From IMG/VR virus record IMGVR_UViG_2526164633_000022, positions 1-63,168 of that record: 63,168 bases of DNA; one strand, written 5' to 3'. Below the pieces are notes generated by a model that saw only the letters and a list, made by a program, of their open reading frames with translations, was not told where the DNA came from and searched no databases. The stretch is from a virus. Taxonomy: Duplodnaviria > Heunggongvirae > Uroviricota > Caudoviricetes. The translations under genes were made by a program, and so were the position numbers. Shown one piece after another: positions 11,677-62,777 of this stretch; within the stretch, counting starts at the first letter, position 1; each line of letters opens with the position of its first letter.

Positions 11677-12750
11677 TCAAGCCTTAAGAGGCTTTGTGTA
11701 TGTTCGTGTAATCCAACCAGTAATAAACTCATCCCCTGATTTAACCTGCACGTAAAGCCATTGACGATCTTTCTTATCTAAAATAGCAACAATTGTGTTT
11801 TTGCCAATGCATTCAATCACTTCACTATTTAAAGAAGGGCCGACATGCAACCTTACGTTATCACCTGTTATAGCTCTAAAATTATTAAGATCCTCCCACT
11901 GAATATCTTTATTTTCTTGTGTTAGCTTTTGCTTAGATATTGGCTTATCCTCATTTAGAGATAGAAGATATGATTCCATCTTGTAAATTTGCGATAATGT
12001 CTTTTCTTTTGCATAATCAGTTATAGCGCCAAGCACCACTTGATAAAAAATCCACAGAAGGAAGATCTGAATAGGAGAAGGAAGCGCCTTAAATGAATCA
12101 AAAAACGTCGAACTAGATTTATTAAATCCTTTGTTTTGATGCTCACTTTCGGTATGCGCTGATTTTATAGAATCATTAGCATAAGCCTGCGCGATAGTAA
12201 CAAGCCCAAGCTCTACTACTTGCTCTAATAATACACTTCTTGTTTTATTATACTGCTTTATTACTTCTTTAATATCTTTGCTTATCTTAATTTTGTAATT
12301 TATATTAGAGTGTAATTCTTTAAATACCTCCTCCATATTATTTAAGCCAGCTATCTTATTAATGGCTTCTGAGTGTTTTCGTAACGGCATAGCCATTTCA
12401 GCTTGATTTTTAATTATTTGAATATGCTCATTTGCATCACTGGGAAAAGCCGCCTGATACTGTTTCTGTAAAAATACCATTTGTTCACGAAACTGGTGTG
12501 CAATTCTCGTAACTTTTGGTAAAGACTCAAGTTCTTTTCGAAAACAATCATTAATTAATTCTTGTTTTTTAACTGTTCCAAACTGTTTAACTAAACTCTT
12601 GTAAATATATTCTGAATTTAATAAACCACTTATCTTTTTATGCCTCACTCCTTTAATTTCATTTAAATAATCATAAAAGGCAGTGCCTTCAGCTTTATTA
12701 TTAGAGTTAAGCGAAATGTGTTTAATATCCTTCACTTTATTCACCGTCAT
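11677..12750 (-). CDS. Membrane protein with C-terminal SH3b-like domain (AT-rich cassette gene 3)
   Basis: 357 aa; ~20% GC locally; hydrophobic helix IQIFLLWIFYQVVLGAI; C-terminal GDNVRLHVGPSLNSEVIECIGKNTIVAILDKKDRQWLYVQVKSGDEFITGWI resembles bacterial SH3. Confidence 0.6.
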   Translation of the reverse strand: MTVNKVKDIKHISLNSNNKAEGTAFYDYLNEIKGVRHKKISGLLNSEYIYKSLVKQFGTVKKQELINDCFRKELESLPKVTRIAHQFREQMVFLQKQYQAAFPSDANEHIQIIKNQAEMAMPLRKHSEAINKIAGLNNMEEVFKELHSNINYKIKISKDIKEVIKQYNKTRSVLLEQVVELGLVTIAQAYANDSIKSAHTESEHQNKGFNKSSSTFFDSFKALPSPIQIFLLWIFYQVVLGAITDYAKEKTLSQIYKMESYLLSLNEDKPISKQKLTQENKDIQWEDLNNFRAITGDNVRLHVGPSLNSEVIECIGKNTIVAILDKKDRQWLYVQVKSGDEFITGWITRTYTKPLKA

Positions 12751-42898: not shown

Positions 42899-43422
42899 CG
42901 GTCAATGGGGCCATCGACTGGCTTAACCGCGCTTCTTATTTTTTCACCCTTGATCCATCCCCAGACAATATGCGGCGCGTTGGTCGTGGCCGCCGTCGCC
43001 GTGGTGTTTGTTATTGCATGGCACTACCCGATGTTAAAGAACGTGAAGTCAGAGATGGCGTTCTGTGCTTCCGTCGTGTGGCTGAACGCGGCACAGAGCC
43101 AAAAAATACGAATTCTCCCGAGTGGTGGGCGTGGCGCTGGTCCGCACATTTCGGCCTTTGCGAAGATGAGAATGAAATTGCCAGCGGCAATAGTGCATAT
43201 GGTGCTCTGAACCTGGCTTTCCATATCGGATTCAAACATGTAGCCCTGGTGGGCGTTGACGCTACGCAAGAACCACGCGTTCACTCCGGCGGCACGCCAA
43301 AAAATCTAAGTCACCTGCCTTTGTTATTCCAGTCTGCGCGTGAACAGATTGACGTTGTTTCATGCGGGAAAATGGGAGGTATTCCGCAGATGACTCTTAA
43401 AGAATGGCTGAAGAATACATGA
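42796..43422 (+). CDS. GxGPS-motif protein, paralogue 2
   Basis: N-terminal VIIVGSGPS...IIAVNG; shared downstream NSG.A..LA and LVG.D motifs. Confidence 0.55.
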
Positions 43423-44096
43423 TGGCACCCACAATTTATCACCGTATCGACGGTACCAAATACAGGAATGTCTGGGTTGTTGGTGATCTGCATGGTTGCT
43501 ACACCAGACTGATGTCCGAACTCCATCGTGTGGATTTTGACCCGGCGCAGGATTTACTGATATCGGTCGGCGACCTTATCGATCGCGGTACTGAAAATGT
43601 CGAATGTCTGGAACTATTGCAGATGCCCTGGTTCAGGGCAGTGATGGGGAACCATGAGCGGTTGATGCTCGATGCGTTAAGTCCTGATGGCAACGTGAAT
43701 AACTGGCTAATGAATGGCGGACAATGGTTCTTCATGCTGGACACTGATCAGGAAATATTAGCTAGGGCGCTGGTGGAGCTGGTAAAGCGTCTGCCCTATA
43801 TCATTGAGTTGAACACCGGGCAAGAAACTATCGTTATAGCCCATGCCGACTATCCGGATAATGAATACCAATTCGGTAAGGAGGTGCCGCTTTTCAACGT
43901 TGTCTGGGCGCGCGAGCGTATCAGTGATTCGATGGATGATATTGGAGGCGAAATTTCGGGCGCAGATCGTTTTATCTTTGGTCACACTCCGGTGAAAAGC
44001 CCGAAGACATTCTGGAATCAGCATTATATCGACACTGGTGCCGTATTTTGCGGAAACCTGACATTGATGAAAGTGAAAGGTGATGGTGCAGCATGA
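43419..44096 (+). CDS. ppp: Ser/Thr protein phosphatase (lambda PPase-like)
   Basis: Start ATG overlapping upstream stop (ATGA); motifs GDLHG, GDLIDRG, GNHE. Confidence 0.8.
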
Positions 44097-44794
44097 AGAT
44101 TGCTTTAGTTTTTCGCTCTGGTGGTGACTATAACGCTTCCGATGTGCAGTGGCTGGTTAATCAACTGCCAAAAGGCTATGAAATTATTTGCCTGACAGAC
44201 CTGAAGCGTTTACATGTACCTGGCGTCAAAGTTGTCCCATTGATCAACCAGTGGCAAAAGTGCCGTGGCTGGTGGGCGAAAATCGAGTTGTTCCGACCGG
44301 ATATAACCGATGATCTGTTCTATCTGGATTTGGACACGGTTATTGCCGGTGATATACGCCCAATCCTAGAGCATCCACCAACCAGCTTCACCATGCTTAG
44401 GGATTTTTACCATCCACAATATCGTGGCAGCGGTGCCCTGTGGATACCAAATAGTGTTAAAGCGCATATCTGGAGTTCATTCTGGCAAGATCCGGAAGGT
44501 TGGATTTCTCGTTGTGTCACTACTGAGTGCTGGGGTGACCAGGGGTTCTTACGAAAGGTTATGGGCGATGATACACCAGCATTTCAGGATCTGTATCCAG
44601 GATGGTTTGTAAGTTACAAGGCCGATGTTGTGGAACCTGGTTCAAAATATGCGAGCGCGCGTTACTCCAGGGGGAATGGGGCATTACCAAAAGACTGCCG
44701 AATAATCTTTTTCCACGGCAAACCGCGACCTCGCGAAGTGTCAGAGGATTGGCTTCCCCTTATCAGCTCATTTTTTGAGCGAGAATCAGAATAA
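44093..44794 (+). CDS. Hypothetical protein
   Basis: 233 aa; ATGA overlap with ppp stop. Confidence 0.5.
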
Positions 44795-44795
44795 T

Positions 44796-44861
44796 ATTGC
44801 TCTAATAATTCCATATTTTTAAAACGTGATGTACACTCATCACGTTTTTTATTAGAGCAAT
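44796..44861. promoter_or_regulatory. Inverted C1 operator pair flanking a palindromic hairpin
   Basis: ATTGCTCTAATAATTCC (44796-44812), hairpin ACGTGATG-TACACT-CATCACGT + T-run, reverse operator TTTTTTATTAGAGCAAT (44845-44861). Confidence 0.65.
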
Positions 44862-44875
44862 CTACAAGGTGCACT

Positions 44876-45094
44876 ATGTGGCCATTCCGACGGAAATATC
44901 ACTACTGGCTGATCGCCTTTGTTACGCCGACCGGCGGTATCAGGCATGTCATCACCAGGTATCGCAACAAGAGACTCACCTTAGCCAGAATTTTACAGGC
45001 TGCCATAGGTGAGGGACTGGATACAAATTGCGTAGTCCTTCCTCCTTCATACTTAGGAAAAATGACCGAAGCACAAGCTAATACGGAACTTTGA
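44876..45094 (+). CDS. Small ORF downstream of operator pair
   Basis: 72-aa ORF; no recognisable features. Confidence 0.3.
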   Translation: MWPFRRKYHYWLIAFVTPTGGIRHVITRYRNKRLTLARILQAAIGEGLDTNCVVLPPSYLGKMTEAQANTEL

Positions 45095-46358: not shown

Positions 46359-46430
46359 TAGTTACAGTGTCACTTTTAATGCTGGTGGAGTGCGCCCACC
46401 AGCATTTTTTTCGTCCAATGAGGAGGGCAT

Positions 46431-46937
46431 TTGAGTATTTTCAATAAACACGCACGCCAGGAACGTCCGTATATCGTCATAGTCGATATTGATGGAACAA
46501 TATCAGAGGCAACTGAAGACAGACTGCATTTGCTTCCGCCACCAGGTAAAGGTGCATTAACAAAGGACTGGAACGAGTTTAATCTCGCCTGTGACACCGA
46601 TACTCCCATCACTCCGGTTATTGATATGGTGCGCCAGTTATTTAACGTTTACACGGTCTGGTTTGTAACCGGGCGCTGTGAGATCGCAAGGGATAAAACA
46701 CGAGCCTGGCTGCGGAAGTACGTAACAAACGGGGCTGAGCCTTTGCTATCTATGCGTCCTGCCACCGATGACAGAAATGACGGTCCAGCAAAGATTGATC
46801 TCCTGAAGAAAATTGGTCTAAGTAAAATTGCGTTCGCGCTGGAAGATAAGATTGAAGTGGCGCGTGTGTTCAGGAGTCACGGCGTACTTACATTCATGGT
46901 CAGGGAGTATGAAAATGCGCTTCTTCATCAACAATAA
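46431..46937 (+). CDS. HAD-superfamily phosphatase-like protein
   Basis: 168 aa; motif IVIVDIDGTIS. Confidence 0.55.
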   Translation: MSIFNKHARQERPYIVIVDIDGTISEATEDRLHLLPPPGKGALTKDWNEFNLACDTDTPITPVIDMVRQLFNVYTVWFVTGRCEIARDKTRAWLRKYVTNGAEPLLSMRPATDDRNDGPAKIDLLKKIGLSKIAFALEDKIEVARVFRSHGVLTFMVREYENALLHQQ

Positions 46938-46953
46938 TTGCTCTAATAAATCT
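46937..46953 (+). promoter_or_regulatory. C1 operator overlapping stop of HAD-like gene
   Basis: ATTGCTCTAATAAATCT. Confidence 0.65.
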
Positions 46954-47131
46954 TGATTTTTAAGGCAGGGGAAGTGAAAATAAAAACATGCCGCAAGGCG
47001 CGGCATGTATCCAATCAATCACAGGAGCTGAAAATATGAACACGGCATTCAAAATCATTATGGCCGCGATCTATTTCTGGCTGTTCTCTATCACTTTTGG
47101 CGGCATCGTCGCACATGGGTAAGGGGGATGC

Positions 47132-61605: not shown

Positions 61606-62457
61606 CTATTGCGCGCTTTCGGGGTTGTCGTTTACTGGCTGCCCCTTCTTAGTTTTACGGCTGCGCGTAACTGATGCGGCTGATTTGACCTTTTTCTCTT
61701 CGCGAGTGATGGCAATTTGTTTTTTTACATTTTCAATATCTGCCAGGCGATATATTTTTGCCTGCGGCCAGCGGTCGCAGATGATCGGTTCTATAGAGTC
61801 ATAAAGGCTAAATTTTGCTTTCTCGAATTCACCGTTGATGATAATTCCATCACGGAGAGTTTCATCGCAGATAAACACACCACATAGCGGCACATGGTAA
61901 CTAACTGATTTACCATCATTGTAGTTAGGGCTACTAGAAATGTAATGGACGCGCAGCATTGTTTCGCTAAAGCCGTGTACGCGCATACGGAATTTTTCAT
62001 CCTCCGGGTACTGCTTCATTAGCTCTTTTGTTGCTTCCAGGTTCTCTATGTATTTCGCACTGTGCTCATTGATCCCTGCGCTTTTCTGGATGCGAATGTC
62101 CTTATCAATCAGATGAATAATGCGGCCAGCGGTCATGTTGACGCTGTTCACAGCTTCTGTCTGATAAGTCGTAACCTTACGCACACCGCGAAGGATGTTA
62201 GGCACTGGATATAAAATAGTCTTTGGGATATTGAGGTCTGGGTACTGTTCCAGTTCCCGCGCCATTAAAGTCCATTTATCAATTTCAGCCTGAATGCTGT
62301 CAGTTTCTTTGAACGGCAGAACGACAACCGGGCGTACAGGACGACCGTCGCTGGCGGCATCAACGTGTTGGGCGCGTGCAACAGCTTTTTTTAGAAAGAG
62401 ATCCCTGAAGCTGACGAACTCCTGGTACAGTTGTTCGCCGTAGACATAATTTATCAT
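61606..62457 (-). CDS. c1: C1 primary repressor
   Basis: 283 aa, size and position as recalled for P1 C1; flanked by operator sites. Confidence 0.85.
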   Translation of the reverse strand: MINYVYGEQLYQEFVSFRDLFLKKAVARAQHVDAASDGRPVRPVVVLPFKETDSIQAEIDKWTLMARELEQYPDLNIPKTILYPVPNILRGVRKVTTYQTEAVNSVNMTAGRIIHLIDKDIRIQKSAGINEHSAKYIENLEATKELMKQYPEDEKFRMRVHGFSETMLRVHYISSSPNYNDGKSVSYHVPLCGVFICDETLRDGIIINGEFEKAKFSLYDSIEPIICDRWPQAKIYRLADIENVKKQIAITREEKKVKSAASVTRSRKTKKGQPVNDNPESAQ

Positions 62458-62569: not shown

Positions 62570-62777
62570 ATTGTGAGTCTGGCTGGTTAGTGGCCATGAG
62601 ATATTCGATTGTGTCAGTGAGATCATCCAGGTCGTCTTGGGTGATGCGGTACTCCTGATTGGATATCTTTGAGTAGTGTTCAGCAATGGCGCGGGCAGCG
62701 TCGGTTTCGGCGGGGTCTACAGATAAAGCGTTAGAGCAATGTCTAACGTCGTCGATGGTTGGTGGAATGAAAGCCAT
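62568..62777 (-). CDS. coi: C1 inactivator Coi
   Basis: 69-aa acidic protein immediately upstream of c1. Confidence 0.7.
   Translation of the reverse strand: MAFIPPTIDDVRHCSNALSVDPAETDAARAIAEHYSKISNQEYRITQDDLDDLTDTIEYLMATNQPDSQ

Follow-up and report, generated by a model that had tools for sequence, protein, structure and literature searches.

An inverted pair of C1 operators in a P1-type phage-plasmid encloses a conserved RNA hairpin and probably the core promoter of pmgR-pmgS

Results

A nested regulatory element between pmgQ and pmgR

The window analysed here, a DNA stretch of 63,168 nucleotides, is a P1/P7-type phage-plasmid. Our main finding concerns a 66-bp element at positions 44796-44861, which we regard as the probable junction of two P1 transcription units, carrying three nested signals: operators, a promoter and a terminator. 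The element itself is already known; it is the catalogued P1 operator pair Op86a/Op86b, which lies ahead of the head-completion genes pmgR-pmgS. The features of the locus, together with the repressor gene, are as follows.

43404-44096, in the upstream unit: ppp, encoding a Metallophos protein.
44093-44794, plus strand: pmgQ (hdmD), the last gene of the pmgN-pmgO-pmgP-ppp-pmgQ unit, identified by its ORF and the P1/P7 annotation, with the stop codon TAA at 44792-44794.
44796-44812, plus strand: Op86a (OpmgRa; Op(sht[a])), ATTGCTCTAATAATTCC, 14/17 matches to the operator consensus, position weight matrix (PWM) score 22.4 bits, found in 11/11 lineages.
44821-44848, plus strand: RNA hairpin with an 11-bp stem (44821-44831 and 44838-44848) and a 6-nt loop (44832-44837), probably the intrinsic terminator that ends the upstream unit.
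44845-44853, plus strand: T-run TTTTTTATT, the putative terminator U-tract; its opposite strand is the A-rich 3′ tail of Op86b.
44845-44861, minus strand: Op86b (OpmgRb; Op(sht[b])), ATTGCTCTAATAAAAAA (TTTTTTATTAGAGCAAT on the plus strand), 14/17 matches to the consensus, PWM score 20.3 bits.
44866-44871, plus strand: Shine-Dalgarno sequence AAGGTG of pmgR, 5 nt ahead of the ATG at 44876.
44876-45094, plus strand: pmgR, identified by its ORF, the P1/P7 annotation and a knock-out phenotype (PMC9024508).
45096-46358, plus strand: pmgS (shtB), encoding a coiled-coil protein of 420 aa, the second gene of the pmgR-pmgS unit, identified by its ORF, annotation and homologues.
46378-46406, plus strand: strong terminator-like hairpin just past the pmgS stop codon, with perfect 11-nt arms, followed by T7 (ΔG -17.6 kcal/mol).
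61606-62457, minus strand: c1 repressor gene, whose product is 282/283 identical to P1 C1.100 and would bind these operators.

The element is the annotated C1 operator pair of P1 and P7

At the DNA level, the 1.1 kb encompassing the element is 99.5-99.7% identical to P1 and P7, and the operators occupy homologous positions. The P1 record (AF234172/NC_005856) names the pair OpmgRa/OpmgRb (formerly Op86a/b), annotates it as a protein_bind feature for "phage repressor C1" and remarks that it controls the expression of pmgR and pmgS, while the P7 record (AF503408), under the same feature type, names the pair Op(sht[a])/Op(sht[b]). These annotations and the sequences identify each of the two sites as a monovalent C1 operator, with Op86b inverted relative to Op86a. 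The initial annotation, made from the letters alone, had recognised both 17-mers as C1 operators, and this identification agrees with the two records and with the presence of c1 in the window; its description of the 17-mers, the palindrome and the T-run is likewise exact. A literature search with Op86 and the other operator names returned nothing relevant.

With the consensus ATTGCTCTAATAAATTT and up to 3 mismatches, 13 matches were found in the window against 0.24 expected, a number reached by none of 100 shuffles. The PWM was trained on the 15 other annotated P1 operators, with Op86a/b excluded; the scores of the pair compare with a best score per window of 13.2 on average and 20.5 at maximum in 100 Markov-simulated windows. 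Every strong operator-like 17-mer in the window corresponds to an annotated P1 operator. The initial list of sites needs minor corrections: six starts were displaced by 1-2 nt (they lie at 41172, 42079, 58279, 62552, 63016 and 12219), and the annotated operator Oc1c at 62724 was omitted. Two of the six, 42079 (19.8 bits) and 12219 (16.2 bits), differ from the consensus at more than 3 positions. The bivalent operators Obanab and Oc1ab are both present in the window, at 32902/32913 and 62541/62552.

The core ATTGCTCTAATAA is intact in both Op86a and Op86b, and their spacing is constant at 49 bp, centre to centre, in all 11 lineages. The outer arms (44796-44808 and 44849-44861) are 100% complementary over 13 nt. 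Op86b has AAAAAA where the operator consensus has AAATTT, and it is precisely this deviation that creates the T-run. As in Obanab (Op72ab) and Oc1ab (Op99ab), two inverted 17-bp C1 sites would act on one promoter. However, the 17-mers of Op72ab and Op99ab overlap by 6 bp at an 11-bp offset and form an incomplete palindrome, whereas Op86a and Op86b are separated by 49 bp, with the hairpin and the candidate core promoter between them. A bivalent operator was rejected on the basis of this offset and of the annotation as two monovalent operators.

A conserved RNA stem-loop follows pmgQ

The hairpin lies 27 nt past the pmgQ stop codon. Its 5′ arm AAAACGTGATG (44821-44831) pairs with CATCACGTTTT (44838-44848), and the inner palindrome ACGTGATG-TACACT-CATCACGT spans 44824-44845. 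The hairpin alone folds with a ΔG of -13.4 kcal/mol (z = -6.6; 0/200 shuffles as good), and the whole element with a ΔG of -27.8 kcal/mol (z = -4.95). Six consecutive T residues are found at 44845-44850, and in the RNA UUUUUUAUU adjoins the stem-loop as a U-tract. Our own terminator scan of the window recovered the hairpin. A generic consensus-based scan did not call it a terminator, a miss that we ascribe to its running the stem on into the T-run, and called no promoter inside the element. An Rfam search of the element gave just one sub-threshold miRNA match on the palindrome, which is meaningless. The P1 GenBank record holds 535 features, and the approximately 430 of them that were inspected include no terminator; since this record seems never to annotate terminators, the absence of one at the Op86 site is uninformative.

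Diverse relatives were obtained through protein-cluster look-ups. A genome contig scan (2 loci) and a first IMG/VR scan (80 loci, at least 99% identity) added no diversity, and a metagenome DNA-pattern scan returned 32 loci, comprising 31 chance matches and one minor new variant (L130). The hairpin is retained in 11 lineages, among which PmgS identity ranges from 52 to 100%. Although 10 of the 11 base pairs are variable, 93.3% of the cells are paired, and 3 pairs are altered on both sides. The covariation score was 0.374 against 0.295 in shuffles and was reached by 0/500 of them, a result resting on few independent lineages, and pairing fell to 37-70% when the 3′ partners were shifted by 1-3 columns. 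Twenty cells are G·U pairs, and the minus strand would therefore be only 76.5% paired. The fold of the plus strand has a free energy of -13 to -19 kcal/mol across lineages (except L115, at -7.5), whereas that of the minus strand reaches only -3.7 to -11 kcal/mol in 7 of the 11. In L109, the stem has been rebuilt in another register with the T-run still present. The T-run is retained in 9/11 lineages; in L105 and L107 it has degraded to CTTGATT (CUUGAUU in the RNA) with the hairpin kept, which indicates that termination is not the sole selected function or is weak in those lineages. P1-type sequences by themselves contain too little signal, since their variation amounts to five singletons that break the stem and four variant types compatible with G·U pairing.

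The locus thus combines a G+C-containing stem-loop and an immediate U-tract with conservation of structure over sequence on the sense strand. The compensatory and G·U changes preserve pairing in the plus-strand RNA only, and the terminator-like character assigned to the hairpin initially is supported. The hairpin is a conserved RNA stem-loop and, judged from sequence and comparison, most likely the intrinsic terminator ending the pmgN-ppp-pmgQ unit. It resembles enterobacterial rho-independent terminators in its stem of 8-11 bp, 4 G-C pairs, 6-nt loop, ΔG of approximately -12 to -13 kcal/mol, six U residues and location after a stop codon. Unlike canonical intrinsic terminators, its loop and flanks would hold a promoter in addition to two repressor sites, and its U-run has been lost in two lineages.

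An early promoter lies between pmgQ and pmgR

Head completion requires the gene pmgR (PMC9024508). In P1vir RNA-seq data at 10 min, log fold changes were 7.05 for pmgQ, 9.02 for pmgR and 9.99 for pmgS, and in a dksA host they were 6.23, 9.00 and 9.09, respectively (PMC8201110, Table S1). In both hosts, pmgR and pmgS thus exceed pmgQ by 4-8 fold (approximately 2-3 log2 units) (PMC8201110), which shows that an independent early promoter lies between pmgQ and pmgR. By the same 10-min values, pmgRS resemble other C1-controlled early genes, whereas pmgO-pmgQ rise late (PMC8201110). The values at 30 min (pmgQ 11.66, pmgR 10.81, pmgS 11.70) are fold changes of uncertain length normalisation and cannot quantify termination (PMC8201110). 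Knock-downs of pmgO through pmgQ by CRISPRi were non-essential, but so was that of the essential pmgR, and polarity is therefore uninformative here (PMC10695390). At its distal end, the pmgR-pmgS unit is probably closed by the terminator-like hairpin at 46378-46406. The downstream genes had been taken initially for a single coiled-coil/HAD operon; the coiled-coil assignment applies to pmgS, while the hairpin between pmgS and pap probably divides the genes into two units.

Two placements of the pmgR promoter were compared.

44797-44825, plus strand: PpmgR as predicted in the P1 record, with the -35 TTGCTC at 44797-44802 and the -10 TAAAAC at 44820-44825.
44809-44814, plus strand: candidate -35 of the placement proposed here, TTCCAT in the window and TTTACT or TTGATT in relatives, overlapping the 3′ end of Op86a.
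44832-44837, plus strand: candidate -10 of the same placement, the hairpin loop TACACT, with a predicted start at approximately 44843-44846.

In 11/11 lineages, the top sigma-70 candidate combined a -10 within the loop with a -35 at the 3′ edge of Op86a, as in TTGATT-16-TATTAT (L105/L107) and TTTACT-16-TATCAT (JK004, L109), the latter with TATTAT as the -10 in L113 and L116. This placement rests on a rough scoring matrix together with conservation. The loop reads TATCAT, TATTAT or TACACT across the 11 lineages, with no variation at its positions 1, 2 and 6 (TAnnnT); in the non-P1 lineages, common descent could account for part of this conservation. The candidate of the P1 type is weak (TTCCAT-17-TACACT, with 2/6 and 4/6 matches). 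From this comparison, the loop hexamer TACACT probably doubles as the -10 of the pmgR promoter.

A similar layout is found elsewhere in P1. In Olpa/Plpa (Op94/P94), Oc4/P2c4, Odmt/Pdmt and Oc1e/P4cre, as proposed for Op86a, an operator in plus orientation overlaps the -35 with its 3′ end. The -10 occupies operator positions 37-42 in Plpa, the same as the loop hexamer, and begins at positions 39-41 in the other three. Sequence beyond the 17-mer (TTGATTTTTA...) is also common to Op86a and these Olpa-type cassettes, and Plpa is listed in the P1 record as a sigma-70 promoter rather than merely as a predicted one. The Olpa-type cassettes differ in that only one operator is present and the -10 is not enclosed by a dyad. 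In the P1 type, the Op86a cassette has a degenerate -35 (TTCCAT).

The P1 record describes the same element but places the -10 at TAAAAC, whereas our comparison favours the loop. Were the published PpmgR correct, transcription would start at approximately 44832, the hairpin would still be the upstream terminator, and Op86b would be an auxiliary site at +13 to +29. P1ban, a listed sigma-70 promoter, has the same operator-internal TTGCTC as its -35 with a 17-bp spacer, and the step in the RNA-seq data is explained equally well by a start at 44832, from which the transcript would likewise begin past the 5′ arm and is unstructured. However, the T that is nearly invariant at -7 is missing from TAAAAC. 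The hexamer is also not conserved: it reads TGAAGC in JK004 and L115, TAAAGC in L093 and, in L109, TGCGGC. The A-to-G changes in it keep the G·U pairing of the stem rather than -10 function, and in no lineage is it among the five best sigma-70 candidates. We therefore consider the published placement unlikely, although it is the alternative that fares best. Two further promoters were looked for at this locus. No Lpa-dependent late promoter was found in the element, and a sequence at 44689, within pmgQ, that differs from such a promoter by one mismatch is unconserved and was ascribed to chance; a leftward promoter from Op86b was dismissed by eye, as no -10-like hexamer occurs at 16-18 bp.

Alternative roles of the dyad

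The initial annotation had also proposed that the operators flanking the hairpin could couple repression with termination. C1 would then cooperate with the hairpin through a roadblock or a DNA loop, a model to which the flanking of the hairpin by operators at a fixed distance in all lineages, and the C1-mediated looping described for the Op99 operators, lend some appeal. We found no support for such a coupling. The upstream unit is itself under C1 and Lpa control and is off in the lysogen: with repression at Oppp/Op83 and O26/Op82, and with Lpa repressed at Olpa, little upstream transcription would be left for C1 to terminate. RNA polymerase meeting a roadblock at Op86b would stall approximately 13-15 nt before the operator edge, i.e. 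in the left arm or the loop, before the 3′ arm is transcribed and the hairpin can form, and 49 bp, or approximately 4.7 helical turns, is very short for a loop. The constant spacing, the TAnnnT motif and the promoter scoring give Op86b a simpler role, in that the operators more plausibly bracket the core promoter, one over the -35 and the other over the start site. A mechanistic coupling of repression with termination therefore appears quite improbable.

The hairpin might instead belong to the 5′ leader of the pmgRS mRNA, attenuating or stabilising it, if transcription started upstream of 44821, for example from the extended-10-like TGCTCTAAT in Op86a. A transcript starting at 44813 does form the full hairpin, TGnTCTAAT occurs within every operator, the P1 record gives TCTAAT as the -10 of PkilA, and a hairpin without a U-run, as in L105/L107, is what would be expected of a stabiliser. 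Nevertheless, the critical A at -11 is missing from TCTAAT, no usable -35 accompanies it, a promoter-proximal terminator conflicts with the high early expression of pmgRS, and the U-run is present in most lineages, which together make such a leader very improbable. Least probable of all is a dyad acting only as DNA (bound by a dimeric protein with the -10 at the centre, extruded as a cruciform or left behind by palindromic operator duplication), as the near-perfect 66-bp palindrome of the whole element and the 15-bp inverted repeat without an inner hairpin at the same position in the distant relative L112 (PmgS 27% identical) might suggest, since the half-sites vary between lineages yet stay complementary, a signature of a folded strand rather than of a protein site, and since G·U pairs are tolerated on the plus strand only and L109 has re-registered its stem.

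Discussion

In the reading that we favour, Op86a and Op86b would bracket a C1-repressible sigma-70 promoter of pmgR-pmgS, with the -35 at the 3′ edge of Op86a, the -10 in the hairpin loop and the start at approximately 44844, within the first bases of Op86b. In the lysogen, one C1 monomer would cover the -35 and a second approximately +1 to +17. In RNA from PpmgN and the late promoter LPpmgL that has run through ppp and pmgQ, the dyad around the -10 would fold into the 11-bp stem-loop and, together with the U-tract, which is the A-rich tail of Op86b read from the opposite strand, would form an intrinsic terminator or a 3′-end hairpin of the upstream unit. Transcripts from the pmgR promoter would lack the 5′ stem arm, be unable to form the hairpin and thus escape termination; a predicted transcript from 44844, like that from 44832, has no significant structure.

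More tentatively, it is quite possible that the current P1 annotation misreads a three-in-one signal, in which the terminator loop carries the early -10, the U-tract is the tail of an operator and transcripts starting inside are immune, with TAAAAC being part of the stem.

The operators are a rediscovery, as GenBank has listed them under P1 and P7 for two decades. The practical value of the present analysis is small, and for P1 specialists it offers a modest refinement, consisting of a likely terminator, by which transcripts of pmgL-pmgQ driven by Lpa would be kept apart from the early, C1-controlled unit pmgR-pmgS, and of a probable re-placement of the pmgR promoter. Such transcription-unit boundaries are relevant to P1 engineering and to the interpretation of polarity in CRISPRi experiments. 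The element would also be a compact example of a phage overlaying RNA-level and DNA-level signals within 66 bp.

Operator pair and hairpin at the pmgQ-pmgR junction

The initial annotation had given the sequence of this element correctly, letter by letter. Two inverted C1 operators enclose a hairpin, whose inner stem is longer than initially described:

44796-44812 (+), operator Op86a, ATTGCTCTAATAATTCC
44845-44861 (-), operator Op86b, inverted partner of Op86a, + strand reading TTTTTTATTAGAGCAAT
Between Op86a and Op86b, inner dyad ACGTGATG-TACACT-CATCACGT
44821-44831 / 44838-44848, inner stem, 11 bp
44845-44850, run of six T after the stem

Operator pair and hairpin together are far beyond chance. 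The outer arms, 13 nt each, show perfect complementarity, and the operator consensus with up to three mismatches matched 13 times in the window, against 0.24 expected. A position weight matrix (PWM) trained only on the other 15 annotated P1 operators scored Op86a at 22.4 bits and Op86b at 20.3 bits; in 100 simulated windows the top score per window averaged 13.2, with a maximum of 20.5. The isolated hairpin folds at -13.4 kcal/mol (z = -6.6).

The surrounding 1.1 kb is 99.5-99.7% identical to P7, P1 and many P1-like phage-plasmids, and a P1/P7-type mosaic forms the final 23 kb of the window, up to the lox site. The operator pair is already catalogued in both phages. In the P1 record AF234172 the site homologous to 44796-44812 is a “monovalent C1-controlled operator OpmgRa”, formerly Op86a, which controls pmgR and pmgS; the one homologous to 44845-44861 is OpmgRb, formerly Op86b. 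The P7 counterparts are Op(sht[a]) and Op(sht[b]). AF234172 also carries a predicted sigma-70 promoter, PpmgR, with its -35 (TTGCTC) within Op86a and -10 TAAAAC. The genes 5′ of the element are ppp (Metallophos) and pmgQ, and the window-encoded C1 is identical to P1 C1.100 at 282/283 positions. Record comparison and the PWM identified each of the other strong operator-like sites of the initial annotation as an annotated P1 operator:

Window positions of operators annotated in P1
Oc4/Op51, 13919
OrepL/Op53, 15591
Odmt/Op68, 29626
Obanab/Op72ab, 32902/32913
O26/Op82, 41172
Oppp/Op83, 42079
OpmgT/Op88, 46937
Olpa/Op94, 58279
Oc1a, 62552
Oc1d, 63016
Oc1e, 63099

Oppp/Op83 (42079-42095 (-)), monovalent in the P1 annotation, has a weak + strand partner, CTTAAAATAATAAATTA (42068-42084, 11.5 bits), which resembles Oc1b (ACGAAAATAATAGATTT) and is offset by 11 bp, as in the bivalent Obanab and Oc1ab; Oppp may be a degenerate bivalent operator. 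Another operator-like sequence, CTTGCTCTAATAATACA (12219-12235 (+)), lies inside a 357-aa minus-strand ORF (11677-12750). This site is absent from P1, megablast against the phage collection gave no match for the ORF stretch, and the score of 16.2 bits is within the range attained by simulated sequence. P1 Orlf/Op55 (ATTGCTCTAATTATAAC, P1 51575-51591), expected past repL, has no exact copy in the window, and a PWM scan with a threshold of 8 bits detected no operator between 15591 and 29626. In two relatives, L113 (1199/1248/3340) and L116 (1202/1251), TTGTTC or TTGTAC stands in place of TTGCTC at multiple operators simultaneously, both Op86 arms and the Op88 equivalent among them; these changes at operator position 5 suggest that repressor specificity has drifted or is tolerant there.

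Conservation of the hairpin in divergent lineages

Because close relatives are almost invariant at the element, divergent PmgS homologues were gathered: JK004 from the phage collection and one from a Salmonella plasmid (each 69% identical), L092 and L093 from IMG/VR, and P0009-P0022 (52-71% identical) from a protein-cluster index. The pmgQ-pmgR intergenic layout, of equal total length in all of them, comprises an operator, 12-13 nt, the hairpin and a reversed operator. Stem sequences vary by lineage with pairing kept, and in L109 a G+C-rich stem is rebuilt in another register.

Stem arms by lineage (left arm, right arm)
P1 type: AAAACGTGATG, CATCACGTTTT
Salmonella-plasmid type: AAAACATGGTG, CACCATGTTTT
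L093: AAAGCATGGTG, CGCCATGTTTT
L113: GAAGCGTGGTG, CACCATGCTTT
L105: AAGGTGTGGTG, CGCCACATCTT

In an alignment of 11 lineages, 10 of the 11 inner-helix pairs are variable, 93.3% of cells are paired, and three pairs show both-sided change. The covariation score was 0.374 versus 0.295 ± 0.024 in shuffles, a value attained by 0 of 500, and shifting the 3′ partners by 1-3 columns lowered pairing to 37-70%. G·U pairs occupy 20 of 119 helix cells; the opposite strand has A·C mismatches there and is 76.5% paired. Across lineages, + strand RNA folds have energies of -13 to -19 kcal/mol, except in L115 (-7.5), and - strand folds are weaker in 7 of 11 (-3.7 to -11 kcal/mol). With few independent lineages, this is good rather than overwhelming evidence that selection maintains the hairpin as a fold of the + strand RNA; a purely DNA-level palindrome is highly improbable.

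The hairpin as a probable terminator

The hairpin starts 27 nt past the pmgQ stop codon and is directly followed by UUUUUUAUU. In our own scan it was among the cleanest hairpin and T-run elements of the window; a generic terminator scan of the window did not call it, which we attribute to the stem being extended into the T-run. The T-run, present in 9 of 11 lineages, arises where Op86b differs from the operator consensus at three positions (…AAATTT replaced by …AAAAAA), which suggests that it is selected in its own right. The hairpin is most likely the terminator of the upstream unit, pmgN-pmgO-pmgP-ppp-pmgQ, and its initial description as terminator-like agrees with the stem, T-run and + strand covariation. 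Since L105 and L107 retain a hairpin of high stability (-16 to -19 kcal/mol) but carry CUUGAUU in place of the U-run, it may additionally or alternatively stabilise 3′ ends.

A second, stronger hairpin (46378-46406 (+); 11-nt perfect arms, -17.6 kcal/mol, then T7), 20 nt past the pmgS stop, is a probable terminator. It likely leaves pap (46431-46937) outside the pmgR-pmgS unit, which, with terminators on either side, looks like a two-gene unit. Just 3′ of the Op88 promoter region, a G+C-rich hairpin (46986-47008, ACATGCCGC-AAGGC-GCGGCATGT, -15.3 kcal/mol) is terminator-like on the minus strand because an A-run precedes it; all neighbouring genes are rightward.

A probable early promoter between the operators

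P1vir infection RNA-seq (PMC8201110, Table S1) gives the following log fold changes, whose normalisation is ambiguous:

pmgO: wild type 10 min, 7.39
pmgP: wild type 10 min, 6.99
ppp: wild type 10 min, 6.95
pmgQ: wild type 10 min, 7.05; dksA 10 min, 6.23; wild type 30 min, 11.66
pmgR: wild type 10 min, 9.02; dksA 10 min, 9.00; wild type 30 min, 10.81
pmgS: wild type 10 min, 9.99; dksA 10 min, 9.09; wild type 30 min, 11.70

At 10 min, pmgR and pmgS fall with C1-controlled early genes (uhr/hrdC/dmt 8.6-9.4, ant1 10.0, pmgT/U 9.7-9.8); values for true late genes are 2-5. The pmgQ/pmgR step, inexplicable by gene length, shows an early promoter between the two genes. The 30-min values, with their ambiguous normalisation, neither demonstrate nor exclude termination. 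P1 CRISPRi is uninformative here, as pmgR knock-down itself scored non-essential (PMC10695390).

Loop positions 1, 2 and 6 (T37, A38 and T42 of the element) are invariant in the 11-lineage alignment. The variants TACACT, TATCAT and TATTAT share TAnnnT, the signature of a -10 hexamer, a conservation for which there is no reason in a terminator loop. A simple sigma-70 matrix with approximate frequencies placed the top candidate of all 11 lineages with its -10 within the loop and its -35 at operator positions 14-16:

Candidate promoters
L105/L107: TTGATT-16-TATTAT
JK004, L109: TTTACT-16-TATCAT
L113, L116: TTTACT-16-TATTAT
P1 type: TTCCAT-17-TACACT, weaker

The arrangement matches four P1 cassettes (Olpa/Plpa, Oc4/P2c4, Odmt/Pdmt, Oc1e/P4cre), in which the last 1-3 nt of the operator (3′ end) also belong to the -35. 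Their -10 begins at operator position 37-41, that of Plpa at 37, the same as in the Op86a candidate, and P1 cassettes share TTGATTTTTA… beyond the 17-mer.

Op86a and Op86b, rightly taken for operators in the initial annotation, more probably bracket a promoter with the hairpin loop as candidate -10. A -10 at 44832-37 implies a start at ~44844, so that Op86a would lie over about -48 to -32 and Op86b over +1 to +17, which would account for the constant operator spacing. Transcripts from 44844, or from 44832, the start implied by the annotated PpmgR, are not significantly structured (z = 0.4 and 0.9) and, lacking the 5′ arm, would escape the terminator. A leader or attenuator is very unlikely. 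We consider such nesting of terminator, promoter and operators the probable reading. That the same terminator accompanies PpmgR as annotated is a lesser possibility, since TAAAAC is not conserved (TGAAGC, TAAAGC and TGCGGC in relatives) and its A-to-G substitutions instead retain G·U pairing of the stem. The initially proposed coupling of repression with termination found no support and is quite unlikely: under active C1 the upstream unit is already shut at Op82/Op83 and via Lpa, C1 on Op86b would presumably stall incoming polymerase before 3′ arm synthesis, and a place over the start site gives Op86b a simpler function.

A late-promoter-like sequence inside the pmgQ 3′ end (44689-44712 (+), AAAAGACTG-N5-TAATCT, one mismatch, -22 box) is conserved in no divergent relative and so probably arose by chance. 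In the distant relative L112 (2700-2760; Logan ERR12361609 contig), whose PmgS shares 27% identity, the position of the Op86 pair upstream of a pmgR-like gene is taken by a perfect inverted repeat with 15-bp arms (AAGATACTAATTTAT and ATAAATTAGTATCTT) set 17 nt apart. It encloses a promoter-like TTTACA-17-GATATT, has no inner hairpin, and is probably the operator pair of a different repressor in the same bracketing layout. An operator followed by TTGATTTTTA(A/T) recurs at P1 loci L001/L003/L004 (Op51, Op68, Op86a, Op88, Op94, Op99e) and at window 46937-46990. This layout, with a TTGATT-type -35 that begins within the operator tail and a -10 whose first base is at operator position 37-41, looks like a recurring module of operator plus promoter.

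What may be new in this analysis is the comparative case for the hairpin together with the re-placed -10; as a refinement it is modest and should chiefly interest researchers of P1 regulation and P1 engineers.
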